From: Candidatus Bathyarchaeia archaeon
GTDB taxonomy: Archaea; Thermoproteota; Bathyarchaeia; Bathyarchaeales; Bathycorpusculaceae
Length of the DNA stretch: 64,000 nucleotides
Reading direction: 5' to 3'
Assembly: GCA_038883775.1 (NCBI GenBank)
Contig: JAVZLM010000006.1
Span: 95,544-159,543, forward strand
Both the position numbers and the translations under genes were made by a program. The notes under the pieces were generated by a model. It searched no databases. It was not told the origin of the DNA and saw only the letters and a list, made by a program, of their open reading frames with translations. Below, piece after piece: positions 11,999-62,020 of the stretch (the first letter of the stretch is position 1; each line of letters begins with the position of its first letter).

Positions 11999-12595
11999 GT
12001 GTTAGAATTGGAAAATTCAATTATAATAGGTATAGATTTGGCAGGAAGCTCCAAAAATCCAACAGGATGGGCTTTATGGAAGAACAAAATAGTGAAAGCA
12101 AATTTGGTTTATACCGACGAGGAAATTCTTAAGGGCATTTTAAGCCATAGCCCATCCATTGTTGCGATTGATGCTCCCTTAAGGCTGCCGAAAGAAGGAA
12201 TTTTAAGAAAGGCAGATAAAGAAATGATAAAAAGGGGATACAGAGTCTTTCCGCCAGGTCTTCCAGCAATGGAAAAGCTAACATTGCGGGCTATAAAAAT
12301 AAACAAGTTAATACTAGAAAAAAAGTATAAAACGGTAGAAGTACACCCAACATCAACAAGAAAAGCTTTAAACATGCCTTTAAAAGAGTGGAAACCCATT
12401 CAAACAATCCTAGAGAGTATGGGAATAAAAGGAGACATTAAAACTCGCACCTTGACATCTCATGAAATCGATGCCATAACAGCAGCCCTAACAGCCTATC
12501 TCCACCTACAAAAACAAACCGAAGCGATAGGAGATGAGGAAGAAGGCTTCATAATAGTTCCTAAAAAAATGGATTGGAGAACCCTAAAAATATGA
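11999..12595 (+). CDS. DUF429 family predicted RNase H-like nuclease
   Basis: 'GIDLAG', 'IDAPL', 'EVHP', 'HEIDA...A'. Confidence 0.8.
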   Translation: MLELENSIIIGIDLAGSSKNPTGWALWKNKIVKANLVYTDEEILKGILSHSPSIVAIDAPLRLPKEGILRKADKEMIKRGYRVFPPGLPAMEKLTLRAIKINKLILEKKYKTVEVHPTSTRKALNMPLKEWKPIQTILESMGIKGDIKTRTLTSHEIDAITAALTAYLHLQKQTEAIGDEEEGFIIVPKKMDWRTLKI

Positions 12596-14145
12596 GCCAA
12601 AATGAAAAGTTGCACAAAGCTGTAGAATTAACAATTGAGGCAGGATACCAACTTGACAAAGAAGCCTTCGAATTTCTAAGCAGTTTGGCAACCACAGAAG
12701 ATCCTACAGAAATCATAAGCAAAGCCCTACAAAAAATTGGAATGCTAACGGAAAAGCCGCTTTTTATTGGCAAAACGTTTCTAGAGCAATTGATAAAAGA
12801 ACAGAAGCTAGTAGAAGAGGCATTTCCCCAACAAGTAGAACAAGTTCAAACATTACCAGAAACCTCCCCCCCTCTTGGAAGAGGAAAATTCCGCCCATTT
12901 GCAAAGGACATTGAAGCCCGCATTAAAATAATTGATAATCCAGCGGAAAAGTTAAGCTCAGGCGGAACGATGGAGGATTACCTACAATATTTCCAAGATA
13001 GGTTCAAGCGCATAGAAAAATTGTTAAGACAGCGAATGGATGTTAAAAGCGCAACTTCAATTATTGAAGCCCTAAAATCTCCTCCAAACACACGTTTAAA
13101 AGTAATTGGCATGGTCACAGAAAAAAGAGAGGCAAAACAAAAAATCTTGCTAACGGTAGAGGATTTGAATGCAAGTACCACAATGCTAGTGCCTCAAAAC
13201 GCTTCAGCAGAAGTTTTGAAGAAAGCGCAATGTCTCCTCCTTGATCAGGTGGTTTGTTTTAGTGTTGTAAAAACAAGAAGCAACCTATTACTTGTCGAAG
13301 ACATAATTTTACCAGACGTGGCGCAGAAAACGCCCCATAAAGCATCAATTCCAGTTTACGCTGTGCTCACGTCGGATATGCATGTGGGCAGCACAAAATT
13401 TCAAGAGAAGGCTTTTGACCGCTTCCTTTCATGGCTTAAGGGCGAATATGGAAATGAAAAAATGAGAGAGATAGCAAGCCATGTCAAATATGTTTTGGTG
13501 GCAGGCGATATAGTAGACGGTATAGGCGTTTATCCAAACCAAGTTAAAGAACTGGCAATAAAAAATATTGATGAGCAGTATAGGCTTGCTCGAGAATATT
13601 TAGAAAACATTCCAGATTATATAGAAGTGGTGATTATACCGGGAAATCATGATGCCCCCAGAAAAGCGCTGCCCCAACCACCTATATCCAACACTTTCTT
13701 TGAAACACTACAAGAAACCCGAAAATTTTATTCCCTTGGAAACCCCTGCACTCTAAGCCTCCATGACGTAGAAGTTCTGCTCTATCACGGTCGCAGCTTA
13801 GACGATGTCATCCCCACAGTTCCTGAAATGGATTCTAACCAGCCAGAAAAAGCAATGAAACTATTACTGCAGAGTCGCCACTTAGCGCCAGTCTATGGTG
13901 AAAAAACGCCAATTTCTCCTGAAAATAGAGACTGCCTCGTCATTGAGCGAATTCCAGACATTTTCCATGCCGGACACATACATGCATTAGGTTATACAAC
14001 CTATCGTGGAGTTTTAATTGTAAACTCAGGAGGGTGGCAAGAACAAACAGAGTATATGAGAAGAATGGGTTTTGTTCCAACCCCTGGAAAAGTCCCGGTG
14101 ATTAATCTTCAAACATTAGAAGTCAACATCCTCTCTTTCTCTTAA
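12592..14145 (+). CDS. polB: DNA polymerase D small (proofreading) subunit DP1
   Basis: OB fold plus calcineurin-like motifs 'SDMHVGS', 'AGDIVDG', 'PGNHD', 'YHG', 'HAGHIH'; ATGA overlap with DUF429. Confidence 0.95.
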   Translation: MSQNEKLHKAVELTIEAGYQLDKEAFEFLSSLATTEDPTEIISKALQKIGMLTEKPLFIGKTFLEQLIKEQKLVEEAFPQQVEQVQTLPETSPPLGRGKFRPFAKDIEARIKIIDNPAEKLSSGGTMEDYLQYFQDRFKRIEKLLRQRMDVKSATSIIEALKSPPNTRLKVIGMVTEKREAKQKILLTVEDLNASTTMLVPQNASAEVLKKAQCLLLDQVVCFSVVKTRSNLLLVEDIILPDVAQKTPHKASIPVYAVLTSDMHVGSTKFQEKAFDRFLSWLKGEYGNEKMREIASHVKYVLVAGDIVDGIGVYPNQVKELAIKNIDEQYRLAREYLENIPDYIEVVIIPGNHDAPRKALPQPPISNTFFETLQETRKFYSLGNPCTLSLHDVEVLLYHGRSLDDVIPTVPEMDSNQPEKAMKLLLQSRHLAPVYGEKTPISPENRDCLVIERIPDIFHAGHIHALGYTTYRGVLIVNSGGWQEQTEYMRRMGFVPTPGKVPVINLQTLEVNILSFS

Positions 14146-14699
14146 GATAAACCACGTGCAATCAATCGCGCAGCCCGAAGGGGTTCTGGAATTCTGCCAC
14201 AAAAGCACAAAAAGCGCACAAGGCTGGAGGCCCACCTAACATTTGCGCCTACCGTTTCCATATACAATGGAGCTTCGTCACTTTTGATGTGGATTTTATG
14301 AACTGGGCCAAGCCTTTGAAAAACTTTCCAACGGATTTCCCAATCTTCAAAGTGCCTTTTTAGGGCGCGCCTTACTGCTTTATTGTTTGGTTTTGTTTGC
14401 GCTATTATGATGATTGGTTTTTTGAATCTTTCATGAATTAGCATGGGGTTGATAAGGTTAAAGCCACCATAAGATACGCCCGCCAACAGAACGACATCAA
14501 ATTCCCAATTTTCCAAGATTTTGGCAAGTTTTTCTGTTGCATCTAATCCATCAACCGTTATTTTTGTGACTTTCACATTTTTAATGGTGGCTTGCCTTAG
14601 CAAAACTATGGCAAGAAGTGCTTCACGAGTTATTCCTTTTTGGAAACTTCCGTCTTCAACCCCCACGATTAGCATGTTTTGAAAGGCTTTTCGCCTCAT
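14142..14699 (-). CDS. DUF99 family (endonuclease V-like / endonuclease dU) protein
   Basis: 'GVEDG', 'VDGLDAT', 'GGFN.I', 'IPEPLR.A.LIA'; overlaps the cdc6 3' end. Confidence 0.85.
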   Translation of the reverse strand: MRRKAFQNMLIVGVEDGSFQKGITREALLAIVLLRQATIKNVKVTKITVDGLDATEKLAKILENWEFDVVLLAGVSYGGFNLINPMLIHERFKKPIIIIAQTKPNNKAVRRALKRHFEDWEIRWKVFQRLGPVHKIHIKSDEAPLYMETVGANVRWASSLVRFLCFCGRIPEPLRAARLIARGLS

Positions 14700-15900
14700 A
14701 TTCCACCAGACGCCCAAGTCTAGTGTCATTAGCAAAAACGTCTCTAATAAGAGTGCGAGCTATTTCCAGCCTAATTTTTTTCGTTCTTCCATACCTTCCC
14801 ATACTTATAACCTTAGCATTCACAAGCCCCATAGAATCAAGCTCATTCACCAACGTGCTTAATCGGCGTTGCGTCAAAGGAGTGACGCTCACTTCTCCAC
14901 AAAGCTCCGCATATACATCATATATCTCGCCTGTGATGGCACTATGAATGTTTGCCCTATTCAAATGGTACACGCTTAAAATCACAAGTTTTGAATGCAA
15001 AGTTAAGTTCCGCAGAGCCTCCACAACCCTATTATGTTCAATATGTTTTTCAGCTTCTCGAACATGCTCTTCAGTTACAAAACTCGCCCCTTTCCGTTCG
15101 GCAACTTCTCCAGCAACCCGTAACAAATCTAAGGCCCGTCTAGCATCACCATGTTCCGCAGCTGCCAAAGCAGCGCAAAGGCTTATAGCTGCTTCAGACA
15201 AGGCGCCTTCATAAAATGCTAATTTTGCCCGTTCAAGCAAGATATTGCCCAATTCATTAGCATCATAAGGCCTAAAAACGATCTCCTCTTCGCTTAAAGA
15301 ACTAAAAACTCTTGGGTCCAGAAACTCTTTCAAACGAAGGTCATTAGATATGCCTACAATAGACGCTTTACTACTGCGTAAAGTTTCATTTATTCTTGTT
15401 AGCTCATAAAGGAGGCTGTCTCCGCGCACCTTCACCAAAGCATCAATTTCATCCAAAGCAACAATAAAAATAATTTTTAAAGTATCTAAACCAACTCTGA
15501 ACCTATCAAAAACTTCGCCAACAGACAAACCAGTAAAAGGAACCTGCACGCCTATACTTTGGCATAACCCAGAAAAAACGCGGTATTCAGAGCCAGCCAT
15601 GCGGCAGTTTACGTAACAGAATTTGACAGGAGCGTTAAACTCCTTCGCTTTAGTTTCTAAATGACTTAAAACATATTTTGTTACAGCCGTTTTGCCTGTG
15701 CCAGTTTTTCCATATATAAAAACATTGGAGCTTCTGGATCCTTTTAAAACTGGGGCAACGGTTTCTCCAAGCCTCGTAATTTGTTCTTCTCGATGAGGCA
15801 GTTTATCAGGTAAGTAATCATGCCGCAAGACCTCTCGGTTTCTGAAAATCCTATTGTTGGAAACAAATTTCTTGAACACTTCGTCGAGAATGCTATTCAA
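14656..15900 (-). CDS. cdc6: Orc1/Cdc6 replication initiator
   Basis: 'LPHREEQI', Walker A GKTGTGKT, Walker B LDEID, 'GDARRALDLLR', C-terminal wHTH 'GRYGRTK'. Confidence 0.97.
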   Translation of the reverse strand: MNSILDEVFKKFVSNNRIFRNREVLRHDYLPDKLPHREEQITRLGETVAPVLKGSRSSNVFIYGKTGTGKTAVTKYVLSHLETKAKEFNAPVKFCYVNCRMAGSEYRVFSGLCQSIGVQVPFTGLSVGEVFDRFRVGLDTLKIIFIVALDEIDALVKVRGDSLLYELTRINETLRSSKASIVGISNDLRLKEFLDPRVFSSLSEEEIVFRPYDANELGNILLERAKLAFYEGALSEAAISLCAALAAAEHGDARRALDLLRVAGEVAERKGASFVTEEHVREAEKHIEHNRVVEALRNLTLHSKLVILSVYHLNRANIHSAITGEIYDVYAELCGEVSVTPLTQRRLSTLVNELDSMGLVNAKVISMGRYGRTKKIRLEIARTLIRDVFANDTRLGRLVEYEAKSLSKHANRGG

Positions 15901-16046
15901 ATTGGTCCCTCAGTAAATTTTAGTGGTAAAACCACTCTTTCTGGTAGAAAAAATAAGCTCTGCCATACAGAAAACTAAATGTTCAACACAAAAATCCTAA
16001 AACAAAACTTTCGCACATTACTTCTCTTTATGATTAAGGAAAGGCA

Positions 16047-16070
16047 CACCCCACAATTTCTTCTGGAACT
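16047..16070 (-). promoter_or_regulatory. ORB1 origin recognition box AGTTCCAGAAGAAATTGTGGGGTG
   Basis: Matches archaeal ORB TTCCAnnGGAAA-n-GGGG consensus (one mismatch). Confidence 0.8.
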
Positions 16071-16232
16071 CTGTAAGTTTTAATAATAATTCTTTTAGAT
16101 TTTTGTTTATTTAGAAAGAAAGAAATATACTCTGAAAGGTTAAAAATCACAAAAGTTACTATAATACTTGCTGTAAAAGTTTTTTGATAAATAACTAAAA
16201 AGGCAAACTAAAACACAAGTGAAAAGGAAAAA

Positions 16233-16255
16233 TTTCCAAAGGAAATGAAGGGGTG
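16233..16255 (+). promoter_or_regulatory. ORB2 origin recognition box TTTCCAAAGGAAATGAAGGGGTG
   Basis: ORB consensus with G-string pointing into the AT-rich tract 16256-16475. Confidence 0.88.
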
Positions 16256-16361
16256 CCACTAAAATATAATTAAACATTATAGTATGCTATTATTATTTCA
16301 TTTTATTTTTCTTCTTTATTTTTTCCTGCATATCTCCGTCTAAGAAAATTCTGTTGAATAT

Positions 16362-16671
16362 TTCACAGCAATTCACAAAATGTAAAGACCTTGTGAAATT
16401 AACTTAATAGCGCCTCTTTTAAACCTTCTTAATTCGGATTATTAACTTTTTCTTGTCTCTTTTTTGTGAATTAGTCACCCCTCCGCTTCCAATGGAAATA
16501 AACATTATTCAAGGCTTCTTTTTCTTTTTAAAATTTGGAGAAAATGTGAAGCCTGTAAACTCAAAAACATTAAGAAATTTCCTTCTTTTTCATTTTTCTC
16601 CATTTAATCCGCTTTCTTCTTTTTTCTTTTTTACCATAACAGCTATAACTTGTGAAGTGTAAAATTGTGAA
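16362..16671. repeat. seven TGTGAA/TTCACA hexamers in the right half of oriC
   Basis: At 16362, 16372 (TTCACA) and 16392, 16465, 16545, 16651, 16666 (TGTGAA). Confidence 0.7.
16476..16498 (-). promoter_or_regulatory. ORB3 origin recognition box TTTCCATTGGAAGCGGAGGGGTG
   Basis: Inverted relative to ORB2; the pair flanks the AT-rich unwinding region. Confidence 0.85.
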
Positions 16672-16696
16672 ACACCTACAATGGGTGCTTCCGCTA

Positions 16697-17128
16697 ATGC
16701 CAGCTAAAAAAATGCGCGTAGAACTCTACGATAGTGAGGGCAACAAGTATACCGTGTCCTTTGAAGGTCAGATAACTAGAGAAAAGGCTCTTCGCTTATT
16801 AGACATGGTGGAGCTTTTGGGCGGGGTATCAGCAAGCGAAGGAAATCCGGGAACACCGGTCCCTGTGACGCTCGATCAGCCAAATAAGTATAGCAAAGTT
16901 CGTATGATAATTCAGAAACATTTTCCACTGGTTTGGTTTTCTTCTAGGGATGTTCAGTTAGTTTATGAGCAGGAATTTAAGGAGCCTATAAGTCTTAGCA
17001 CGGTTGCCACATACCTTTATAGAATGGCAAGCAAGGGATTACTTGCTAAAGCTGGGGCTTCTAACCGTTTGAAATACAGGCTGATGCCTACTTATCCACA
17101 AATATTGCCTAAACAACAGATGTCATGA
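16697..17128 (+). CDS. uncharacterised origin-adjacent protein: small N-terminal beta domain, linker, C-terminal winged helix
   Basis: 'KKMRVELYDSEGNKYTVSFEGQITREK' then 'FSSRDVQLVYEQEF.EPISLSTVATYLYRMASKGLL......KYRL' wHTH; GGGTG SD before ATG 16697. Confidence 0.8.
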   Translation: MPAKKMRVELYDSEGNKYTVSFEGQITREKALRLLDMVELLGGVSASEGNPGTPVPVTLDQPNKYSKVRMIIQKHFPLVWFSSRDVQLVYEQEFKEPISLSTVATYLYRMASKGLLAKAGASNRLKYRLMPTYPQILPKQQMS

Positions 17129-17136
17129 TCCCTTTT

Positions 17137-17847
17137 TTATTGGGCTTCTGTTTCCTTCTTTTTTAGAATGTTTTCCATTTCTTTCTTCACATTATATTTG
17201 AATGGGATTTTGCTTGTATCCCTCTCCAGATAACCTCCTTCGTAAAGTTTCTTCATCAACCGCGCTGTGTGCTCTCGGCTGAGTTTGATTCGCTCTTTTA
17301 TTTCTGGTGCGGTTTTAGGGCCTTCAGAAGCCAACATTTCCAGAACCGCCAATTCTGTTTCTGTGAGGGGGGCTAGGGCTTTTTCTCTTTTTATGGGTAT
17401 TGCCGCCTCAATTTTTGCCTCGGGAACAATAGAAAGCCGCCGACTTTGCTCTTCAACTTCCGAAACCTTTAAATTTAACTTTTCAAATGCCGCAGAAAGA
17501 TCACTTACTTTTTCATCAACTTCAACAAATCTTTTTGAAATTTCCTCTTTGTGCTCCAGAACTTTACTTACCTTTTCCTCTAAAGACTGAACCCTCTTAT
17601 GAGTTTCTTCTGCCTTGTTTAGTGCTCTTTCACTTTTTGTGGAAATGGCTTCAACTTTATAAATCACACGCTCCGTCCTTTCGGCTTCCTGCTTTAACTC
17701 TCTATTAAAACTCACCAAAATGTCGCCGATGATTTCTCTTGCCTTTTCATATTCTCTCCGCACCTTTTGCAACTGCCTGTAATACTCGACAGCAGCCCAG
17801 ACGGTTATGACAAGCAAACTTCCAAAAAGAATCAAGAGCGCATCCAT
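17137..17847 (-). CDS. membrane-anchored coiled-coil protein with C-terminal MarR/TrmB-like winged helix
   Basis: N-terminal TM (LLILFGSLLVITVWAAV), ~110-aa heptad-rich helix, wHTH 'LTETELAVLEML..EGPKTAPEI....KLSREHTARLMKKLYEGGYLER'. Confidence 0.85.
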   Translation of the reverse strand: MDALLILFGSLLVITVWAAVEYYRQLQKVRREYEKAREIIGDILVSFNRELKQEAERTERVIYKVEAISTKSERALNKAEETHKRVQSLEEKVSKVLEHKEEISKRFVEVDEKVSDLSAAFEKLNLKVSEVEEQSRRLSIVPEAKIEAAIPIKREKALAPLTETELAVLEMLASEGPKTAPEIKERIKLSREHTARLMKKLYEGGYLERDTSKIPFKYNVKKEMENILKKKETEAQ

Positions 17848-17862
17848 ATAGAGTACCCCACT

Positions 17863-18136
17863 TGTGATTTATATGTGATTACGCCCAATTCAGACATGTT
17901 ACATCACACATCACAGTTTTAACATAGAAGATTTAAAGATTACGGTAAAAAGGAAGCTGTGAAAGTTTCGATGACATCACACATCACAGCTAATAGAGAC
18001 AAATGCTTGCAATCACAAAAATGCACTAAAAGGTCAGCTTTTTTGGTTTTTTGCTTTTTGCGCCTTAATTTGCACTTCAAATTAGCATAGCTGATTAAAG
18101 GTATTTCTCCTTTCTTGTATGTGACTTGTGATGTCA
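17863..18136. repeat. TGTGA(T) repeat array including two identical 16-mers ACATCACACATCACAG and an inverted variant
   Basis: 16-mers at 17901-17916 and 17974-17989; inverted TGTGACTTGTGATGTCA at 18120-18136; singles at 17863, 17874, 17958, 18012. Confidence 0.85.
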
Positions 18137-18613
18137 CGTAAAGCCCTCGGTGGGATTTGAAAGCTTTTTTAGGCTTGTTTCAAGCTCTTCTCTAACCATT
18201 TTGATGAGTTTTAAATGTTCATCAAGTTCGCTGTCCTTGTTTGGTATATCCTTGTATGCTTCCATGAACTCGTGTAATTTATTTGCTATTTCGAGATAGG
18301 GGTCAAGTGTCGTGTCTTCAAACACTCCCAAGTATCCTAAGAGCAATACTGTGTAAATTGATTTTATGACGTTTTCTTTTGCCTGTTTTAAAGTTCTGTT
18401 GAAGGCTCCGCGGCTTATTTTTGCCTTTGATAGTCTTAATCTGGCTTTTTCGTCGTATTTTAGTTGTTTTTCTGAAAAATTTTCAGCCAATATGTCAATA
18501 AGTAACGTTTCAAGCTGAATTTTTGTTAAATGACTATTTTTAGCGAGCATTTTCACAATAGGGTCGTTTAATGCGTTTGTTAACCAGGCTTGGATGTTTT
18601 CTTTAAGCTTCAC
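18134..18613 (-). CDS. uncharacterised helical protein with HTH-like segment
   Basis: 'SHLTKIQLETL...YDEKARLR....ISRGAFNRTLKQAKENV' HTH-like, followed by 'SIYTVLLLGYLG' and a helical tail. Confidence 0.75.
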   Translation of the reverse strand: MKLKENIQAWLTNALNDPIVKMLAKNSHLTKIQLETLLIDILAENFSEKQLKYDEKARLRLSKAKISRGAFNRTLKQAKENVIKSIYTVLLLGYLGVFEDTTLDPYLEIANKLHEFMEAYKDIPNKDSELDEHLKLIKMVREELETSLKKLSNPTEGFT

Positions 18614-18742
18614 ACTTTTCTCTCCACAAACTTGCTGGATGGATACACTTTTGTATACAGGACTATTTTAAATTATTGAGTGCTATGATGAAAAGCATGC
18701 TTTGCTAACACAAACATTTTATGTTAAAGAAAACAGTGTAAG

Positions 18743-19927
18743 ATGAGGGTCCCTTTGGATTCGGACTTTAAGCCCGCAGATCGCCTAAAAGGCATAAAAT
18801 ATTCTGGAATACGCCGCTTTTTCGATATAGCTCAAAAAACGCCGAATGTTATCAATTTAAGCGTCGGAGAACCCGATTTTGTGCCGCCGAAACATGCTTT
18901 GGAGGCTGGATGGCAAGCCATGAAAGAAGGTAAAACCCATTATACACCAACTAATGGCATTCCTGAACTTAGAGAGGCTTTAGCACAGAAAGCCTACCAA
19001 GACTATGGCCTCCACTACGATCCAAACGCTGAAATCCTTGTTACCGCCGGCGGGACTGAAGCTATTTTCTTAGCCATTGCTGGATTAGTGAATCCCGGCG
19101 ATGAAGTGCTTATTCCAAATCCTGGATTTGTTTGTTATGAACCAAGTGTTCTTTTGGCAGGCGGTGTTCCTGTTTCTGTTCCTTTGCGGGAGGAAAATTC
19201 ATTCAAACCTTCTGTTGAGGATGTGATATCGCGTATCACGAAAAAGTCACGTGTGATGATACTTAACTATCCTAACAATCCCACAGGTGCCGTTCTTTCC
19301 CATGATGAGGCAGCTTCTTTAGCAAAAGTTGCTGTAGAACATGATGTGATTGTGATTTCAGATGAGGTTTATGAAAAAATAGTTTACGATGACGCTAAAC
19401 ACTGTTGTTTTGCGGCTTTCCCAGGAATGTGGGAGCGCACCCTAGTGATTAATTCTTTCTCTAAAACTTATGCCATGACTGGTTTGCGTGTTGGATGCAT
19501 TTATGGACCCAAAGAGCTTATGTCTTTTCTTTGGCTTGTCCACCAGTATACGGTTGCCTGCGTAGATAGTCTTGCACAGCATATTGCCTTAGCAGCATTG
19601 AAAGGGCCACAAGATTTTGTTAAGAATATGGTGTGCGAGTTTGACAGGCGAAGGCACTTGGTTCATAAAAGGCTTATGGAAATTGAGGGTTTTAATTGTA
19701 GCCTCCCAAAAGGCGCTTTCTATATGTTCCCAGACATAAAAGCTTTTGGCATGCGTTCAGAGGAGTTTGCTGAGTTCCTTGTGAGAGAGGCGGGAGTTGT
19801 GACCGTTCCAGGGTCTGCTTTCGGCGTTCAGGGTGAAGGTCACATAAGAATGTCTTATGCTGCGACTTACGAAAAATTGGAAGAGGCATTAAACCGCATA
19901 GAAAGGGCTGTTAAAAAGATTAGGTAA
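18743..19927 (+). CDS. class I/II PLP-dependent (aspartate-type) aminotransferase
   Basis: 'GEPDF', 'NYPNNPTG', 'SDEVY', 'SFSKTYAMTGLRVG'. Confidence 0.93.
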   Translation: MRVPLDSDFKPADRLKGIKYSGIRRFFDIAQKTPNVINLSVGEPDFVPPKHALEAGWQAMKEGKTHYTPTNGIPELREALAQKAYQDYGLHYDPNAEILVTAGGTEAIFLAIAGLVNPGDEVLIPNPGFVCYEPSVLLAGGVPVSVPLREENSFKPSVEDVISRITKKSRVMILNYPNNPTGAVLSHDEAASLAKVAVEHDVIVISDEVYEKIVYDDAKHCCFAAFPGMWERTLVINSFSKTYAMTGLRVGCIYGPKELMSFLWLVHQYTVACVDSLAQHIALAALKGPQDFVKNMVCEFDRRRHLVHKRLMEIEGFNCSLPKGAFYMFPDIKAFGMRSEEFAEFLVREAGVVTVPGSAFGVQGEGHIRMSYAATYEKLEEALNRIERAVKKIR

Positions 19928-19933
19928 GTTATT

Positions 19934-20767
19934 TTATAACTCCTCTGCACGCCTTTTAAGTTCGTCGAAGAGTTCTGGGCGCAAATCCCTTAATGTAGGA
20001 ACGAAAGTTTCCACAGGCTTTATGTCCGCATAATCCACATCACACATCACAAGGTCCTCTTCGTCATATTTTGCTTGAGCTAAAACTTTTCCATTAGGCC
20101 CCACAAGTCGACTTCCTCCCCAAAACTGTAAACCGTCTTCTATGCCTACAAGGTTAACATAAGCCAAAAAAGCCGTGTTTTCTATAGCCCTTGCTATGGT
20201 TAATGTCTCAAAAAATTTTTTTCTAATTGCTGGGGATGCAGAAATGCAAACTATTAATTGTGCCCCTTTAAGCCGTGTTAGGCGGCTTACTTCTGGGAAA
20301 AATATGTCATAACATATGATTAAGCCTATTTTTCCAATTTTTGTTTCAAAAACTGCTGTGCTATATCCTGCGCGGAAATATCTTTTTTCTTCAAAAACGC
20401 TGTGAGTTGGGAGATATATTTTTCGGTATTTTCCTATGAAGCCTTCTGGGCCTATGAGAACTGCTGTGTTATAAAGGGTTGCTTTAGTTTTTTCGCTTAA
20501 TTCTGGCATGCCAAAAATAATATGAGCATTTGTTTTTCTGGCTATGTTCTCTAAAGCTTTGACTGAAGGGCCTGGTATTGTTTCTGCTAACTCATATAGT
20601 TCGTCTCTGACCGTATAGCCTGTCAGTGAAAGTTCTGGAAAAATTACGAGATTTGCGTCTTGTTTCTTGGCTTTATTTACAAATTTTTCCATTTTCTTTA
20701 TGTTTGCCTTTTTGTCTCCACGTTTGCAACTGATTTGCGCCAATGCTATCTTAATTTTATTTTCCAT
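19934..20767 (-). CDS. carbon-nitrogen hydrolase (nitrilase family), likely glutaminase partner of NadE
   Basis: Triad motifs 'FPELSLTGY', 'YRKIYLP', 'ICYD'; immediately downstream of nadE. Confidence 0.88.
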   Translation of the reverse strand: MENKIKIALAQISCKRGDKKANIKKMEKFVNKAKKQDANLVIFPELSLTGYTVRDELYELAETIPGPSVKALENIARKTNAHIIFGMPELSEKTKATLYNTAVLIGPEGFIGKYRKIYLPTHSVFEEKRYFRAGYSTAVFETKIGKIGLIICYDIFFPEVSRLTRLKGAQLIVCISASPAIRKKFFETLTIARAIENTAFLAYVNLVGIEDGLQFWGGSRLVGPNGKVLAQAKYDEEDLVMCDVDYADIKPVETFVPTLRDLRPELFDELKRRAEEL

Positions 20768-23077: not shown

Positions 23078-23164
23078 AAGCGCCTCGCAGCCTTTATTTT
23101 TGATTTTTCTGTGTCACAAAACCAAAATAAACTGTTGACAACACAAGAAAGTGCGTGTTGCGGT

Positions 23165-26100
23165 ATGAACGGTCCCATGAGCGAATCCTATAAGCAATAT
23201 GTGGAAGCTTTAGAAGACCACCTTCAGCAATTATACATTTTAAGCCAGAAGGCAAGAGAAGAAGGCTTTGACCCAGCACTAAAACCTGAATGCAAAATTG
23301 CCAAGGATTTAGCCGACTTGGTAGAAGGGCTCGTGGGGCCAAAGGGCGTTGCTGAAAGCATAAGAGAATTAAGCAAGAAACTTTCAAGGGAAGAGTTAGC
23401 CTTTAAAATTGCTGAAGAAATTGTCTATGGCAAATTTGGGCACATGGAAGCTGAAGCAGCAGCCGAACAAGCAGTGCGCACTGCCCTCGCAATTTTAACA
23501 GAAGGGCTTACAGCAGCACCTTTACAAGGCGTGGCAAAAGTGAAAATCAAAACAAATCATGATAGGACACGTTATCTCGCCGTCTATTTTGCTGGTCCAA
23601 TACGCTCCGCTGGCGGAACAGATCAAGCCTTAACATTAGTTGTGGCTGATTTTGTGCGCCGTTTGCTTGGGCTTGATCGTTACAAACCTACGGAAGATGA
23701 AATTTCGCGATTTGTTGAGGAGATGAGGCTTTATGAACGTTCTGTGGGTCGTTTTCAATATCATGTTTCAGATGATGAGCTTAGGAAGGCGCTCCATTGG
23801 CTTCCAGTGGAAGTGACTGGTACAGAATCTAACCCTATTGAAGTTTCTTCTTTCCGTAATCTTCCACGTATTGAAACTAATCGTGTGCGGGGTGGAGCAC
23901 TTAGGGTTGTGAATGATGGTGTTGTGGGGAGGGCGTCTAAAGTTTTGGCTATTGTTGAGAAGCTTGGCATTGGTGGGTGGGATTGGCTAAAGGATTTTCG
24001 TAAAAAGTCGGAGAAAAAATCTGCAGGGTTTATGGATGAAGTAATTGCTGGACGCCCAATCTTCTCGTTTCCATCCACCCGCGGCGGCTTTCGTCTCAGG
24101 TATGGAAGAGCACGCAATACTGGTTTGGCTGCTGTTGGAGTACATCCGGCGACTATGCTTGTGCTTCAAGGATTTCTGGCTGCTGGCACACAACTCCGTT
24201 TGGAGCTTCCTGGAAAAGGGGGCATTGCTGTTCCGGTTGACGGCATAGAACCACCCATTGTTTTGTTAAAAGATGGGTCAGTTGTTCGTGTGTCTATAGA
24301 AAATTTTAATCGTGTGAAAGATGAAATTTCCAAGATTCTTTTTTTGGGCGACCTTCTGATTAGCTTTGGAGATTTCTTGTATAATAGTAAGTCTCTTGCA
24401 CCTTCTGGTTATGTGGAGGAGTGGTGGGCTAAAGATTTACAAAAGGCTATTATAGAAAAGTTTAATGGGAACGTTCAAAGCTTAGCGGAAGCCACTAAAA
24501 TTCCCTTTGAAAGGCTTAAGGATTTTTTAGAAAATCCCTTCGCCAATAAACCAACAATCCAAGAAGCAATCACTCTATCACTAGTGCTAAATGTGCCCCT
24601 CCATCCATCTTTCACATTCTTCTGGTCAAATCTTCGCTCGATTGAGGCGCTTGAACAACTGCGAAGTTGGCTTCTTAACTCCAAAGTACAGAAAGACGGC
24701 GGTCTAGTTTGTGAAATTGTTGGAGATAAGCACGCAAACGTTAAACAAGCTTTGGAGACGATATGCTTACCTCACAAAGTTTTGGAAGGCAAAATCGTTA
24801 TCGAAGGGGTAGATGCACATGTCTTTGCCTTCTCCCTTGGTTACGAATCTACAAATGCCATAGACTTTTCTTCTGCCAAAACCATTAAGGAGGCGGTCAG
24901 CCAACTTGCTGGCGTAGAAATTCGAGAAAAGGCTGCGACGTTTGTTGGAGCCCGTATGGGAAGACCCGAAAAGGCAAAAAGGCGTGAGATGAAACCGCTT
25001 GTGCATTTTCTTTTTCCAGTAGGTTTAGCTGGCGGAGCTCAGCGGGATATTGTGGAAGCGGCTGAAAAAGAGCGGGTTTTTGTGGATATTGTTAAGCGTA
25101 AATGTCGGGTTTGCGGTACTTCTACTTTTAGGGTTAAATGTCCAAATTGTGGCTCTGAAACAGTGATTGAAAAAAGCTGTCCTCGATGTGGTAAAGTTTT
25201 GAATGGGAACGAGTGTCCCGTCTGTAAGGTGCGCACTAATCCCTATCAAAAACAGCGCATCAATTTTAGGGAGTTGCTTGAAACTGCTTGTGAGCGTTTA
25301 GGTGTGTCTATTCCAAAAATTTTGAAAGGCGTTAAAGGCTTATCTAATGAGAGTAAAACTCCTGAAATTATTGAGAAAGGGATTTTGCGGGCTAAGTATG
25401 ATTTATCAGTTTATAAAGATGGAACGGTGCGCTTTGATGCCACAAATGCTCCTTTAACCCACTTTAAACCCTCAGAGATAGGGGGTTCCGTGGAAAGGCT
25501 CAAACAGCTCGGTTATAGCCATGATATTTATGGTGCACTGTTAACAGATGCAAACCAAATATGCGAACTAAAAATTCAAGACGTCATCATCCCCACAAAA
25601 TGCGCAGAATATTTCGTACGAGTTGCAAACTTTTTGGATGAACTTTTAACGAAAGTCTACAAGCTTTCACCCTATTATAATGTTAAGCGAATAGAAGACT
25701 TGGTTGGGCACCTTGTTGTGGGTTTGGCTCCCCACACTTCTGTAGGCATTCTTGGACGTATAATTGGCTTTACAAATCTAAACGTCTGTTATGCTCATCC
25801 AATTTGGCATTCAGCCAAACGTAGAGATTGTGACGGTGACGAAGATGCGTTAATGCTTGCTTTGGACACTTTGCTTAACTTTTCTCGTGAATATTTGCCA
25901 GCCCAAATTGGTGGAATAATGGATGCCCCCTTGCTTCTGATTCCAATTGTTAACACTCAAGAGGTGCAGAGGCAAGCATACGATTTCGACGTTGCTACCG
26001 CATATCCTCTAGAATTTTATGAGAGAACACTGGAAAACGTAGACGCCAAGAACGTGAGCCGCATCATAGACCTCGTTGGTCATCGATTGGGCACTGAAGC

Positions 26101-26581
26101 ACAGTTTGAAGGCTTCCGGTTTACAACTCCAGTTTCCAACATTAATATGGGGAATGCTGAAAGCGCATATAAACGGTTCAAAACAATGATTGAGAAGTTA
26201 ACATGCCAACTTGATCTGGCTGAAAAAATAGAAGCAGTAAATGCAAGAAAAGTGGCTTTTAAAGTTTTGACAAAACATTTTATGCGTGACATTGCTGGAA
26301 ACCTACGAGCATTTTCCATGCAAAGATTCAGGTGTAAATCATGTAGCAAACGTTTCAGACGTTTGCCTTTACGCGGCAAATGCCCCATATGTGGCGGAGA
26401 ATTAACCTTAACCGTTTACCGTGGTGGAATTGAAAAGTACTTGGAGGCTGCGCAGCATTTAGTTAAAAAGTATGGTTTGCCCCAGTATTATTCCCAGAGA
26501 ATTTTGCTTATGAAAGAGGAAATTGACTCCCTGTTTGTGGGGAAAAAGCCCAAACAAATTAGCCTAACGGATTTTGCTTGA
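23165..26581 (+). CDS. polC: DNA polymerase D large catalytic subunit DP2
   Basis: 'AGPIRSAGGT', 'RMGRPEK', Zn fingers, catalytic 'KRRDCDGDED', C-terminal PIP-like 'QISLTDF'; no intein. Confidence 0.97.
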   Translation: MNGPMSESYKQYVEALEDHLQQLYILSQKAREEGFDPALKPECKIAKDLADLVEGLVGPKGVAESIRELSKKLSREELAFKIAEEIVYGKFGHMEAEAAAEQAVRTALAILTEGLTAAPLQGVAKVKIKTNHDRTRYLAVYFAGPIRSAGGTDQALTLVVADFVRRLLGLDRYKPTEDEISRFVEEMRLYERSVGRFQYHVSDDELRKALHWLPVEVTGTESNPIEVSSFRNLPRIETNRVRGGALRVVNDGVVGRASKVLAIVEKLGIGGWDWLKDFRKKSEKKSAGFMDEVIAGRPIFSFPSTRGGFRLRYGRARNTGLAAVGVHPATMLVLQGFLAAGTQLRLELPGKGGIAVPVDGIEPPIVLLKDGSVVRVSIENFNRVKDEISKILFLGDLLISFGDFLYNSKSLAPSGYVEEWWAKDLQKAIIEKFNGNVQSLAEATKIPFERLKDFLENPFANKPTIQEAITLSLVLNVPLHPSFTFFWSNLRSIEALEQLRSWLLNSKVQKDGGLVCEIVGDKHANVKQALETICLPHKVLEGKIVIEGVDAHVFAFSLGYESTNAIDFSSAKTIKEAVSQLAGVEIREKAATFVGARMGRPEKAKRREMKPLVHFLFPVGLAGGAQRDIVEAAEKERVFVDIVKRKCRVCGTSTFRVKCPNCGSETVIEKSCPRCGKVLNGNECPVCKVRTNPYQKQRINFRELLETACERLGVSIPKILKGVKGLSNESKTPEIIEKGILRAKYDLSVYKDGTVRFDATNAPLTHFKPSEIGGSVERLKQLGYSHDIYGALLTDANQICELKIQDVIIPTKCAEYFVRVANFLDELLTKVYKLSPYYNVKRIEDLVGHLVVGLAPHTSVGILGRIIGFTNLNVCYAHPIWHSAKRRDCDGDEDALMLALDTLLNFSREYLPAQIGGIMDAPLLLIPIVNTQEVQRQAYDFDVATAYPLEFYERTLENVDAKNVSRIIDLVGHRLGTEAQFEGFRFTTPVSNINMGNAESAYKRFKTMIEKLTCQLDLAEKIEAVNARKVAFKVLTKHFMRDIAGNLRAFSMQRFRCKSCSKRFRRLPLRGKCPICGGELTLTVYRGGIEKYLEAAQHLVKKYGLPQYYSQRILLMKEEIDSLFVGKKPKQISLTDFA

Positions 26582-35757: not shown

Positions 35758-35864
35758 TTGTATGTCTGGCGCTTTACTGCACGGAAAAATATAAGAAGCT
35801 CAAAATCAATCATATAGTCTGCTTGCTGCTATCCTACAACAACAATGAAAAAGGAGGCAATAAT

Positions 35865-36221
35865 ATGGCAGAAGAAAAACAGAAAAAAGAAAGCGCAGAA
35901 AAACCAACAAAAACCACGCGACCCTCAAGAACCGCGCCGACCACCCAAAGCAACGAAAACATTGTTTTAATAGGCAAAAAACCATTGATGAATTACGTAG
36001 TTGCCTGCCTAACATTCTTTAACTCCGGCTCAAAGAAGGTTGTTGTTAAAGCCAGAGGGCGGGCAATCAGCAGAGCTGTAGACACGGTTGAGTTGTTAAG
36101 GCGTGCCTTCATGAAAGATGTGCAATTGGAAGGCATCAACATAAGTACTGAGGAAGTTGTTAGAGGCGAAGGTCAAAAAGCAAACGTTTCCGCCGTCGAA
36201 ATAACATTGACAAGACCTTAG
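35865..36221 (+). CDS. albA: chromatin protein Alba with ~30-aa N-terminal extension
   Basis: 'VLIGKKPLMNYV', 'KARGRAISRAVD', 'VSAVEI'; GGAGG SD before ATG 35865. Confidence 0.93.
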   Translation: MAEEKQKKESAEKPTKTTRPSRTAPTTQSNENIVLIGKKPLMNYVVACLTFFNSGSKKVVVKARGRAISRAVDTVELLRRAFMKDVQLEGINISTEEVVRGEGQKANVSAVEITLTRP

Positions 36222-58752: not shown

Positions 58753-59340
58753 TTGGCTGTTAAAAAATTTCGCATAATCAAACCCGAAATCCGCGTGTTA
58801 GGAGTGGACGACGGAGTATTCGCTCCCCGTTCAAAGGGTTTGGTGCCAATTGTGGGAGTGGTTTTTAGAGGCGGTTACTGGCTTGACGGAGTAATGCACG
58901 CCAACGTGAAAGTAGATGGTTTAGATGCTACAAAAAAGATAACGTCTATGATAATCAGTTCGTCACATTATAAGCAATTGCGGGTTATAATGCTTAATGG
59001 AATAACTTTTGCAGGCTTTAACGTTGTAGACATAAAAGAACTTAATGCCAAAACAAAACTTCCAGTCATAGCCGTAACACGAGAAAAACCAAACTTTGAA
59101 GAAATCCGTGAAGCCTTGAAAAATCTGCCGAAAAGCGAAGAACGCTGGAAAGCGGTAGAAAATGCTGGAGAAGTGTATGAAGTGTTCACTAGAAATGAAA
59201 AAGAGAAAATCTACATGCAAATTTCTGGAATACTCGAAGAAGACGCTAAGAAAATTTTGCAGCTAACCTCCACAAGAAGCAATATTCCCGAAGCCTTACG
59301 TGTAGCCCACTTAATCGCTTCTGGAATAACCGCCATTTAG
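58753..59340 (+). CDS. DUF99 family (endonuclease dU) protein
   Basis: 'IKPEIRVLGVDDG', 'VDGLDAT', 'GFNVVD', 'IPEALRVAHLIASG'. Confidence 0.9.
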   Translation: MAVKKFRIIKPEIRVLGVDDGVFAPRSKGLVPIVGVVFRGGYWLDGVMHANVKVDGLDATKKITSMIISSSHYKQLRVIMLNGITFAGFNVVDIKELNAKTKLPVIAVTREKPNFEEIREALKNLPKSEERWKAVENAGEVYEVFTRNEKEKIYMQISGILEEDAKKILQLTSTRSNIPEALRVAHLIASGITAI

Positions 59341-60210: not shown

Positions 60211-60966
60211 ATGTTCAAAATCAAAATGGCTGATGCCAAACTTCTAAGAGACATGATAACAGCAATCTCCATCCTCGTAGACGAAGCCACATTCAAAATA
60301 GACCCCGAAGGCATAAAACTTCGAGCAATGGACCCATCCCGCGTTGCTATGGTTGATTTTGAATGGCCCAAAACAGTTTTTGATGAGTACGCAGTCACGG
60401 AACCAACAAAAATGTGCATAAACATAAGCGAACTTTTAAAACTGCTCAAAAGAGCAGGCAAAGATGAAGTTGTGGAACTTTCCCTCGACGAAAAAACTGG
60501 CAAACTACAAGTAAAAATTTCTGGGAAATACGCTCGGAACTTTACTATGCCAACCCTTGAGGCCTCTGAGGAAGAGGTTCCAACACCAAAAATACCTTTC
60601 AATGTTAAAGCAAAAGCCACAACCCAAGGATTAAGCCAAGCCATTGAAGATGCCCAACTTGTAAGCGACCATGTCAGAATCGAAGCGGACAATGAAAAAC
60701 TTGTTTTAAATGCCGCGGGCGACCTTATGGGTGCAACCATAACCCTTCAAAAGGGAAGCGACGCCCTCCTCGATTTAGAAGCAAAAGAACCTTCAAAGGC
60801 AACCTTCAGCCTAAGTTACCTTTCCGAAATTATAAAAGAGGCATCTGCAACATCCGACATTGCAACATTAGAATTTTCCACAGATATGCCAATAAAATTA
60901 GATTTCCAACAAGCCAAAGAAGGAAAACTAACCTTCTATCTGGCGCCGAGAATCGAAACCGAATAA
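60211..60966 (+). CDS. pcn: DNA polymerase sliding clamp PCNA
   Basis: 'LRAMDPSRVAMVD', 'FSLSYL', 'FYLAPRIE'. Confidence 0.97.
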   Translation: MFKIKMADAKLLRDMITAISILVDEATFKIDPEGIKLRAMDPSRVAMVDFEWPKTVFDEYAVTEPTKMCINISELLKLLKRAGKDEVVELSLDEKTGKLQVKISGKYARNFTMPTLEASEEEVPTPKIPFNVKAKATTQGLSQAIEDAQLVSDHVRIEADNEKLVLNAAGDLMGATITLQKGSDALLDLEAKEPSKATFSLSYLSEIIKEASATSDIATLEFSTDMPIKLDFQQAKEGKLTFYLAPRIETE

Positions 60967-60967
60967 T

Positions 60968-62020
60968 GTGAAAAAGATGCAAATTGCCACAGTTCACTTC
61001 ACCAAAAATGATTTAGCAAAATACCCATTCCTCAAAGAAACAGCAGAATACGTTAAGAAATTAGATTTAAAAATTGAAGACTTAACAAACCCAGAATTCT
61101 CTACCATTCTTGAACGTGCGAAAGAAAGGGTTGAAGAAGCAATATTATATGCTCTAGTGAGCAGAAAACTCCGCAATGAAGAAATCGAAATACTATCCTT
61201 TCCAGTTGCAATCATGCTGACAATTGCGACAGAAAACTCTTTCATCAAAAAGAGATACGCCCTAGCAGAAGCAAAACAAGCCTACAATGACATAAAAACA
61301 GAAACAAAAGAAAGAATTCTGGCCATAGCACAAAATTTCAACTGGAAATTTGCTTTAAACCTAGATGCTAACATTCCTTACGAATTTAAGCTTCACTTTA
61401 CAGACTACCTAAAGAACACAACGCAGCTTCGAGACAAGAAATGGAAACTCGTAAACCGTCTTCTAACAAACGGCTATGTTTACCTAACCAAAACCGAAAC
61501 TGCAAGACTCCTAAGCGAAGAAGTCAGAAGACAAATTGAAAAAAGACTAAACGTAAAAGAGCTACACGAATTTCCACCAACCATAACGAATATTGCAGAA
61601 AAAATAAAGAGCTTGTCCGTTGAAAAGATAGGCAAAGCAGAAATGGAAGGTTTCCCAAAAACAATAGTCCAACCAGCCTTTCCGCCGTGCATAAAAAACC
61701 TTTACCAATCCGTCTCATCTGGACGGCATCTCCCCCACATAGGAAGATTCACCCTCACAGCTTTTCTCATAAACATCGGAATGCCACCGGAAAACGTCAT
61801 AGACCTATTCAAAAACTTCTCTGACTACGACCAGAGAATGACCAGTTACCAAGTAGAACACATAGCAGGCGAAAGGGGCTCCAGAACCCGCTACATTCCA
61901 CCAAAATGCGACACGCTAAGAACTCATGGGGTATGCGTAAATTCAGATGAAATTTGTCAAAAAATACGTCACCCATTAGCCTACTATCGAAGGAAAATAA
62001 AAAACCCAAGTATCTCTTAA
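60968..62020 (+). CDS. priL: DNA primase large subunit PriL
   Basis: 'KYPFL', 'FPPCI', 'H.GRF', 'YQVEHI.G', 'Y.PP.C..L...G.C...C...HPL.YY'. Confidence 0.95.
   Translation: MKKMQIATVHFTKNDLAKYPFLKETAEYVKKLDLKIEDLTNPEFSTILERAKERVEEAILYALVSRKLRNEEIEILSFPVAIMLTIATENSFIKKRYALAEAKQAYNDIKTETKERILAIAQNFNWKFALNLDANIPYEFKLHFTDYLKNTTQLRDKKWKLVNRLLTNGYVYLTKTETARLLSEEVRRQIEKRLNVKELHEFPPTITNIAEKIKSLSVEKIGKAEMEGFPKTIVQPAFPPCIKNLYQSVSSGRHLPHIGRFTLTAFLINIGMPPENVIDLFKNFSDYDQRMTSYQVEHIAGERGSRTRYIPPKCDTLRTHGVCVNSDEICQKIRHPLAYYRRKIKNPSIS

Follow-up and report, generated by a model that had tools for sequence, protein, structure and literature searches.

A conserved trio of predicted DNA-binding proteins, one with a putative membrane anchor, flanks the cdc6-associated origin region of a Bathyarchaeia archaeon and its relatives

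Three small open reading frames (ORF1, ORF2 and ORF3) lie directly beside a predicted replication origin in a 64,000 nucleotide stretch of the genome of Candidatus Bathyarchaeia archaeon (GenBank assembly GCA_038883775.1, contig JAVZLM010000006.1, positions 95,544 to 159,543; the whole stretch is referred to as the window). Sequence comparison established that these genes form a conserved, origin-flanking trio accompanied by co-conserved, locus-specific cis-elements, and that one of the products, ORF2, is predicted to be anchored in the membrane. The reading that we favour, with a probability of roughly 40%, is that the locus is an ancient origin-flanking module of three DNA-binding proteins in which ORF2 would act as an autoregulated tether of origin-proximal DNA.

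Results

Layout of the locus

The orc1/cdc6 initiator gene (cdc6; 14656-15900, minus strand; Pfam Cdc6_C E 6.8e-27, Cdc6_lid E 1.3e-26, and AAA domains) is divergent from ORF1 (16697-17128, plus strand, 143 amino acids) across a gap of 796 nt, the origin gap. ORF1 is followed by ORF2 (17137-17847, minus strand, 236 amino acids) and ORF3 (18134-18613, minus strand, 159 amino acids), which are separated by 286 nt (17848-18133). A preliminary description of this DNA had proposed an origin-tethering or segregation module at this position, and every element that it located was found in place, including the three architectures that it assigned to the proteins (a soluble winged helix protein; a transmembrane helix, coiled coil and winged helix-turn-helix; a helical, helix-turn-helix-like protein); the minus strand location of ORF2 and ORF3 was not mentioned there. 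It had also described the window as free of a ParA/MinD ATPase, in agreement with a family scan in which no ParA/MinD-type ATPase (CbiA, ParA, AAA_31) was detected among 75 window ORFs (69 at E ≤ 1e-5, and the six locus ORFs at E ≤ 1). The nine CbiA-family matches that exceed the cut-off are all located elsewhere in the genome. Neither ORF1, ORF2 nor ORF3 matched ParBc or a related Pfam or NCBIfam family at E ≤ 1, which sets the trio apart from SegB/ParB-type binders.

The trio is conserved and widely linked to cdc6

Family searches were performed in a sample of 401 genomes of a single phylum, the Thermoproteota, and identified ORF1 in 258, ORF2 in 213 (E ≤ 1e-6) and ORF3 in 176 genomes, nearly always as single copies. 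In the order to which the window belongs, ORF2 is present in 35 of 41 genomes, and the gene order PolD small subunit, cdc6, ORF1, ORF2, ORF3 was seen in 30 of the 34 loci fetched; the remaining four (L022, L042, L043 and L044) have a contig edge where cdc6 would fall. The block also includes genes for GGGP synthase, Elf1, NAD synthase and a CN-hydrolase, which are conserved throughout the order. All three protein families are annotated as hypothetical only, and no named relative has a Pfam domain. Families f22, f30, f31, f35 and f36 each had either no match or one to two matches in total across the three protein families.

The full gene order also recurs in several other classes of Thermoproteota. 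Outside the order, the distance to cdc6 was determined in one genome for each ORF1-bearing family (five genomes for f21), covering 20 families. Divergent, neighbouring cdc6 and ORF1 genes with a gap of ≤3.3 kb were found in 14 of the 20 (f14, f15, f17, f20, f39, f33, f43, f25, f32, f46, f21, f28 and f65, together with f64, where the pair spans the ends of a single-contig genome), and cdc6 is located ≤9.5 kb from ORF3 in 11 of 20 distant loci. The preliminary description had pointed to a linkage of similar proteins to cdc6 in Thaumarchaeota, and the f21 genomes demonstrate it: ORF1 lies ~500 nt from cdc6 in 5/5 complete genomes, ORF1 and ORF2 are convergent and <1 kb apart in all 25 genomes with coordinates for both, and three loci carry PolD small subunit, cdc6, ORF1, ORF2, ORF3 and GGGP synthase (GGGPS) in this order. 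The ORF1 protein of one f21 genome shares 83-99% identity with Nitrosopumilus and Nitrosarchaeum proteins, including those of cultivated species. In the synteny search that had been suggested as a check, linkage was widespread (14/20 families) but not universal, as ORF1 and cdc6 are 92-504 kb apart in 4/20.

Parts of the arrangement persist where the whole does not. The cdc6-ORF1 and ORF2-ORF3 pairs are retained amid rearrangement at loci L162, L163 and L180, and f13 genomes keep cdc6, ORF2 and ORF3, with ORF1 not found in the 4/4 genomes searched. In f29 and f34 (L168-L170), ORF3 and a short ORF2 consisting of a transmembrane helix plus a winged helix abut or overlap on the same strand, forming an operon.

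In 14 of the 34 loci of the order (e.g. L016:6577-9118), ORF1 and ORF2 are separated by a HerA-like ATPase gene and a gene for a 336 amino acid partner, and a remnant is present in L020. The HerA-like gene matches Pfam DUF87 (E 4.3e-9) and, weakly, HAS-barrel; the overlapping partner has no Pfam family, and neither gene has a tblastn match in the genome containing the window. The insertion is a variable origin-proximal cassette.

ORF2 is predicted to be a membrane-anchored winged helix protein

Residues 161-220 of ORF2 matched the Pfam families MarR (PF01047; E 2.3e-7, 31.0 bits against a cut-off of 24.6) and TrmB (PF01978; E 2.5e-6, 27.7 bits against a cut-off of 25.6), and the protein is also akin to Lrs14 and Sta1. 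MarR and TrmB regulators are soluble dimers of ~140-150 amino acids, with a dimer interface formed by helices on either side of the winged helix-turn-helix. ORF2 shares their domain but not their architecture, having a transmembrane helix and a stalk of ~120 residues N-terminal to the domain, and ~15 residues after it.

A hydrophobic helix (residues 3-21 in ORF2) is present in 32/32 homologues and begins at residue 1-6, with 0-1 lysine or arginine residues before it and 3-7 in the 15 residues that follow. Due to this charge asymmetry the winged helix is expected to be cytoplasmic, and ORF2 is predicted to be an N-out signal anchor protein that keeps its winged helix inside and exposes 0-5 residues beyond the membrane. 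An outward-facing winged helix, named in the preliminary description as an observation that would speak against a tether, is thus at odds with the predicted topology of all 32 sequences. Residues 25-145 contain one proline and one glycine, and 47% of them are charged or glutamine, a composition that fits a coiled-coil stalk of ~120 residues. The recognition helix sequence SREHTAR is invariant in ORF2, and the form SREH(T/V)(A/S)R is kept across the phylum in step with the TGTGA half-site, which is likewise kept. The ORF2 homologues at L172, L173, L175 and L167 (f25, f32, f23 and f26, respectively) have a coiled coil and a winged helix, and SRTLK replaces ARLMK in their recognition helix.

TGTGA boxes are concentrated at the putative ORF2 promoter region and in the origin gap

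The dense TGTGA repeats that had been noticed in the origin and between ORF2 and ORF3 were confirmed by counting: TGTGA or TCACA occurs 10 times in the 286 nt ORF3-ORF2 gap and 8 times in the 796 nt origin gap, compared to a window mean of 0.64 per 300 nt. Across the 1.69 Mb assembly (mean of 0.45 per 300 nt), the ORF3-ORF2 gap (10 boxes) ranks first in density among 300 nt segments, ahead of the origin core (6 boxes), and the third-ranking segment (5 boxes) is located 2 kb further on in coding sequence, so that all three fall within 4 kb of the origin. The composite motif TGTGAYGTGTGA has three copies in the genome, all of them at this locus. A search of the window with ATCACACATCACA, allowing ≤2 mismatches, returned five matches, a number that was reached by 0 of 100 shuffles.

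Four paired sites can be distinguished in the ORF3-ORF2 gap, all read on the minus strand. Site 1 (18120-18137; TCACAagTCACA) adjoins the ORF3 stop codon, is composed of inverted repeats and is conserved. Site 2 (17974-17989; cTGTGAtgTGTGAtgtcat) lies upstream of a TATA-like box (17931-17938, minus strand; ctttaaat within accgtaatctttaaat), which is kept in the corresponding gaps of the order and is the putative promoter element of ORF2. Site 3 (17901-17916; cTGTGAtgTGTGAtgt), downstream of this box, is an exact 16 nt direct repeat and is conserved, and site 4 (17861-17880) has the form TCACA-n6-TCACA in the sense of ORF2 and is situated just before the ribosome-binding site and start of ORF2. 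From ORF3 to ORF2, the gap contains TCACAaaTCACA at the ORF3 stop, ~150 variable bases, TGTGAtgTGTGAcgtcat, the TATA-like accataatctttaaat, TGTGAtgTGTGAtg and finally TCACA-n5/6-TCACA, followed by GAGG and the ORF2 start codon.

This layout recurs in the window and 30 further loci of the order, with 4-11 boxes each, and a looser form of it is seen in other classes. Families f13 (which had no ORF1 match), f64 and f21 also have dense TGTGA(T) arrays upstream of ORF2. A strict three-box pattern matched the region upstream of ORF2 in 4/5 complete f21 genomes and had its sole genomic match there in two of them; in one f21 genome it also matched within a tandem-repeat gene, where a control pattern matched equally. 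At L159, L163, L165, L173 and L174, which represent several other classes, ORF2 has no TGTGA array of its own and directly follows a gene for a protein that ends in ...GIITKIDV... and has a CBS-domain-like appearance. The idea that the transmembrane helix of ORF2 and the upstream array co-occur across lineages was dropped, given that transmembrane-bearing ORF2 genes behind another gene occur with no array.

Two further candidates from the repeat region were set aside. The third exact copy of ATCACACATCACA (20039-20051, in the CN-hydrolase gene) was treated as probably coincidental because it encodes V-M-C and recurs in some relatives only; together with nearby boxes it makes up the third-densest TGTGA segment of the genome, only 2 kb from the array. 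A 65 amino acid ORF inside the repeat gap (17940-18137) was rejected because this stretch is not conserved between relatives. An Rfam scan of 15800-18800 at E ≤ 1 gave no match, and the repeats are therefore not explained by a known RNA family.

The cdc6-ORF1 gap resembles an archaeal replication origin

Archaeal ORB-type origins are defined, in PMC4010727, by repeated and inverted origin recognition boxes (ORBs; a dyad plus a G-string) that flank AT-rich DNA beside an initiator gene. The cdc6-ORF1 gap contains an inverted pair of ORBs, a third ORB and AT-rich DNA, with cdc6 adjacent, and we infer from this composition that replication starts in the gap. ORB1 (~16043-16069; a C-string plus dyad, ggcacaccccacaatttcttctggaac) is kept in the cdc6-ORF1 gaps of 20 relatives. 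The conserved ORB2 (16232-16255; atttccaaaggaaatgaaggggtg) is in the opposite orientation to ORB1 and ORB3, and forms with its partner ORB3 (16476-16499) a 24 nt inverted repeat with 79% complementarity. Between ORB2 and ORB3 lies an AT-rich stretch (16259-16345) that is the likely unwinding element. The 1 kb bin with the lowest GC content of the window (0.331) is 16001-17000, and the cumulative GC skew is lowest at 17-18 kb. The order of the origin elements is the same in the gaps of 20 relatives from the order.

TGTGAA boxes occupy conserved positions in this gap, namely the ORB2-ORB3 interval, the position 5′ of ORB3, and two positions after accataacagctataac upstream of ORF1. The origin core (16363-16396; tTCACAgcaatTCACAaaatgtaaagaccTTGTGAAatt) contains three TGTGA/TCACA boxes, and its TCACA...TTGTGAAATT block is kept across relatives. 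The box immediately 5′ of ORB3 (16465-16499; cacccctccgcttccaatggaaat) has counterparts adjoining an ORB in other classes too. A conserved TGTGAAgcctgtaaa box is found at 16545-16559 on the plus strand, followed by the putative ORF1 promoter region (16636-16675, plus strand), in which accataacagctataac and then TTGTGAAgtgtaaaatTGTGAA are preserved nearly letter-for-letter in relatives from the order. The interval that separates ORB1 from the cdc6 start, on the other side of the gap, contains a short ORB-like dyad (tttctggtagaaaa) and the block ataagctctgccatacagaaaactaaat (15935-15960), which are kept in relatives and could be the cdc6 promoter with a site for autoregulation by Orc1/Cdc6.

ORF1 and ORF3

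The start codon of ORF1 is supported by the near invariance of M1 and P2 in 33 homologues. The AlphaFold model of ORF1 (predicted local distance difference test score, pLDDT, 72.9) has a beta-hairpin and helix at residues 1-40, a disordered linker at 44-61 and a winged helix at 64-129, and Foldseek aligned the winged helix with the DNA-binding domains of Fur, MecI, BlaI and RosR (probability 1.0, E ~3e-3). On this model, ORF1 is a soluble protein with a C-terminal winged helix. A profile search against PDB sequences had the generic regulator 2k4b as its best match (E 0.024), and the NCBIfam scan returned no family for ORF1. In the ESM Atlas, ORF1 matched only clusters of Bathyarchaeota hypothetical proteins, two of which have Penicillinase_R assigned to 11-18% of their members.

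ORF3 had no Pfam match (E ≤ 1) and no NCBIfam family, its profile had 0 matches to PDB sequences at E ≤ 10, and Foldseek aligned its model with nothing in the PDB at E ≤ 0.001. The model (pLDDT 74.7) comprises seven helices, arranged as an N-terminal four-helix, helix-turn-helix-like domain and a C-terminal helical hairpin. With VIA-align, residues 17-101 matched LuxR/GerE and sigma region 4 structures at Z 6.2-6.7, scores at which unrelated helical hairpins tie; within this helical background are 7vim (Z 6.7, 64 residues aligned, root-mean-square deviation 2.9), 4ldz (Z 6.2, 53 residues, 1.7), and 1rp3 and 3hug (both Z 6.2 and tied with unrelated helical structures). The distant ORF3 homologue of L175 alone matched Sigma70_r4, at 23.4 bits (below the cut-off of 24.1; E 4.2e-5). 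ORF3 may, with low certainty, be classed from these models as helix-turn-helix-like and weakly similar to sigma region 4 or LuxR.

A motif in minus strand orientation (GTATACAAAAGTGTATCC, 18641-18658) is located 30 nt upstream of the ORF3 start. Its general form, GTATACAAAAnnGTATCC, was found in 33/33 sequences from the order at 15-31 nt from the start codon, and the strict form TACA-N4-6-TGTA in 24/33. The motif probably serves ORF3 as an operator or as part of the core promoter. The same motif is present upstream of ORF3 homologues in other classes (L157-L179), from Bathyarchaeia to the Nitrosopumilus-like family.

Discussion

A membrane tether or a local transcription circuit

In the tether that we favour, ORF2 would insert in the membrane via its N-terminal signal-anchor helix and dimerise through the ~120 residue stalk, exposing two winged helices to the cytoplasm. 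These would bind paired TGTGA(Y) half-sites around the TATA box of ORF2 itself, two pairs upstream and two downstream, giving 8-10 half-sites in 286 nt; TGTGAtgTGTGA is the candidate DNA target of the dimer. ORF2 bound there would be expected to repress transcription from its promoter, given that the sites lie on both sides of the TATA box and extend over the ribosome-binding site, and would also hold origin-proximal DNA at the membrane, since the array is ~1.4 kb from the ORB-flanked unwinding region. The TGTGAA boxes of the origin core and ORF1 promoter may extend the same interaction, or a sister interaction, onto the origin, with either ORF1 or ORF2 as the protein involved. ORF3 would autoregulate through the GTATAC-N6-GTATCC motif at its promoter and may be functionally coupled to ORF2, as suggested by two other families in which the genes overlap in an operon.

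A plain local transcription circuit is almost as likely as the tether. It would consist of three autoregulated factors, with the TGTGA and GTATAC motifs as operators and the ORF2 anchor serving sequestration or release, and any effect on the origin would be incidental or would arise via expression of genes in the cdc6 region. The TATA-like box has sites 2 and 3 on either side and site 4 lies over the ribosome-binding region, conserved motifs are present at the promoters of ORF1 and ORF3 too, the composite motif occurs nowhere else in the genome, as a purely local operator predicts, and the DNA-binding domain of ORF2 is of the MarR/TrmB/Lrs14 type, families that are annotated as regulators. A circuit does not, however, account readily for three TGTGA boxes placed between ORB2 and ORB3, far from start codons, for a regulator with no extracellular or ligand-binding domain for sensing, or for conservation beside cdc6 across classes, which is unusual for ordinary regulators.

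Several observations weigh against the tether. The TGTGA array is mostly around the TATA box of ORF2, as plain autoregulation predicts, and the origin's TGTGAA boxes may serve as promoter elements of ORF1 or form part of a longer ORB. ORF2 is one of three candidate binders of TGTGA. ORF2 genes that lie directly behind another gene have no array. The ORF2 homologues of f25, f32, f23 and f26 have no N-terminal hydrophobic helix in their frames as called, which reflects either a loss of the anchor or wrongly set starts. ORF1 is separated from cdc6 by 504 kb in f29, 190 kb in f27, at least 145 kb in f48 and 92 kb in f41, and by 18-22 kb in f34 and f44. The same conserved block contains GGGP synthase and Elf1, which have no replication link, and part of the synteny may therefore be inherited gene order. 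Furthermore, the fold assignment of ORF3 is weak, with Z scores at background level and a Sigma70_r4 match that is below the cut-off and restricted to a single distant homologue, and a complex prediction of ORF2 (residues 24-236) with ORF3 scored 0.00, which carries no verdict and is evidence neither way. The tether as first proposed is partly supported: the architectures, repeats, Thaumarchaeota linkage and topology stood, the array fits plain autoregulation, and the linkage is not universal.

A more far-reaching version of the tether appears rather unlikely at present. In it, ORF2 and its TGTGA arrays would constitute a centromere-like membrane anchor of the origin, with ORF1 as an origin-core co-factor and ORF3 as a regulator, providing motor-independent positioning in Bathyarchaeia, Nitrosopumilaceae and allied Thermoproteota. 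If true, archaea for which no segregation machinery has been described would possess a means of origin positioning that has no sequence relationship to ParB, SegB, RacA or RicO.

It is improbable that ORF1 alone matters, as an accessory origin-binding or initiation factor acting with Orc1/Cdc6 in the manner of WhiP at Sulfolobus oriC3, and that ORF2 and ORF3 are mere neighbours. ORF1 is the member of the trio with the tightest and widest linkage to cdc6, being divergent from it across an ORB-bearing gap of ~0.5-0.8 kb in the order of the window (30/34 loci) and similarly arranged in f14, f20, f39, f33, f43, f25, f32, f46, f21 (5/5), f28 and f65; it belongs to a widespread single-copy family (258/401 genomes), and TGTGAA boxes adjoin ORB3 and occupy the origin core. 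Against such a role, cdc6, ORF2 and ORF3 are kept in the four f13 genomes in which ORF1 was not found, ORF1 is far from cdc6 in f29, f27, f48 and f41, and the protein showed no sequence similarity to solved initiators, its best PDB match being a generic regulator at E 0.024. In addition, the promoter of any gene divergent from cdc6 must fall in the origin gap. Equally improbable is inherited gene order, in which unrelated small regulators remained near the origin in a rarely rearranged chromosomal block: GGGP synthase, Elf1, NAD synthase and CN-hydrolase are kept in the block across the order, GGGPS directly follows ORF3 in f21, and 4 to 6 families of 20 have lost the linkage, but the cdc6-ORF1 and ORF2-ORF3 pairs outlast rearrangement (L162, L163 and L180), f29 and f34 have ORF3 and ORF2 as an operon, the genes keep their cis-element arrays across classes, and the three densest TGTGA clusters of the genome are all at this locus.

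Relationship to known systems

To our knowledge, next to nothing has been established about origin positioning and segregation in archaea outside the Sulfolobales and Halobacteria. In Bacillus subtilis, RacA has an N-terminal DNA-binding domain and a coiled coil, binds repeated ram sites around the origin and fixes the origin to the cell envelope; it reaches the membrane indirectly via DivIVA, and ram sites are GC-rich inverted repeats distributed over a large region. ORF2 likewise combines a DNA-binding domain with a coiled coil, whereas its candidate sites are TGTGA half-sites within 286 nt at its own promoter. For ParR/parC, and for SegB upstream of segAB in Sulfolobus, iterated repeats overlap the promoter of the binder and could serve as both operator and segregation site; these binders, which adopt ribbon-helix-helix or other folds, work with a ParM or ParA-type motor encoded next to them. 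The promoter-overlapping repeats of ORF2 are alike in this respect, but ORF2 is predicted to be membrane-anchored and the window encodes no such ATPase.

ToxR and CadC regulators are single-pass membrane proteins with a cytoplasmic, N-terminal OmpR-type winged helix and a periplasmic sensor domain. ORF2 resembles them in being single-pass with a winged helix predicted to be cytoplasmic, but the domain order is reversed and only 0-5 residues are predicted outside the membrane. No extracytoplasmic sensor domain is found in ORF2, the helix starting at residue 1-6 in 32/32 homologues, and ORF2 is unlikely to be a sensor because it has almost no extracellular part. The lack of a sensor domain disfavours ToxR-like signalling and favours a structural role.

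The closest described analogue of ORF2 in logic is RicO of Staphylococcus aureus, a bacterial protein that has its DNA-binding domain at the N-terminus and an amphipathic helix at the C-terminus, and whose function has been demonstrated experimentally (bioRxiv 10.64898/2026.03.06.710092). By contrast, ORF2 begins with a predicted transmembrane anchor, which is followed by a coiled-coil stalk and, at the C-terminus, by the winged helix, and its function is here a proposal from sequence. RicO, RacA/ram and the autoregulating centromere binders would be analogues of ORF2 in logic, and no homology to ORF2 was seen. In passages of PMC4010727, WhiP is described as a Cdt1-like winged helix initiator that is encoded beside the Sulfolobus origin oriC3, which has no ORBs. 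Compared by description only, both WhiP and ORF1 are winged helix proteins encoded next to an origin, but ORF1 is opposite cdc6 at a classic ORB origin. WhiP/Cdt1-like initiators are defined by tandem winged helices homologous to Cdt1; the ORF1 model has a single winged helix and a small beta-hairpin domain.

The trio has common folds; what appears to be undescribed is the domain order of ORF2, together with the arrays and the phylum-wide linkage to the origin. A literature search, which had subscription journals mostly outside its scope and covered no supplementary files, found no description of such proteins or of a Bathyarchaeota origin with its cdc6, and the passages of PMC4010727 and PMC11188069 consulted do not mention the trio. 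As the trio is found beside the origin in lineages ranging from Bathyarchaeia to near relatives of cultivated Nitrosopumilus, concrete proteins, DNA sites and a cultivable host are at hand. Should the tether prove wrong, a replication-linked regulatory circuit is still defined by the operator arrays and the conserved cdc6-origin-ORF1 arrangement.

Further features of the window

Upstream of cdc6 lie the gene for the PolD small subunit (12574-14145, plus strand) and an Endo_dU-family gene (14142-14735, minus strand; PF01949, E 2.7e-45). The latter runs ~80 nt into the 3′ end of cdc6, which is on the same strand, an overlap that is also seen in relatives; a second Endo_dU paralogue is located at 58753-59340 (PF01949, E 6.7e-64). 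Beyond ORF3 are genes for an aminotransferase, a CN-hydrolase, NAD synthase, Elf1 and GGGP synthase, and further on the PolD large subunit (23111-26581). Replication genes are abundant in the window: the small and large PolD subunits are encoded 9 kb apart and flank the origin locus, and PCNA and the primase large subunit are encoded at 60-62 kb (60211-62020). An Alba gene is present at 35823-36221.

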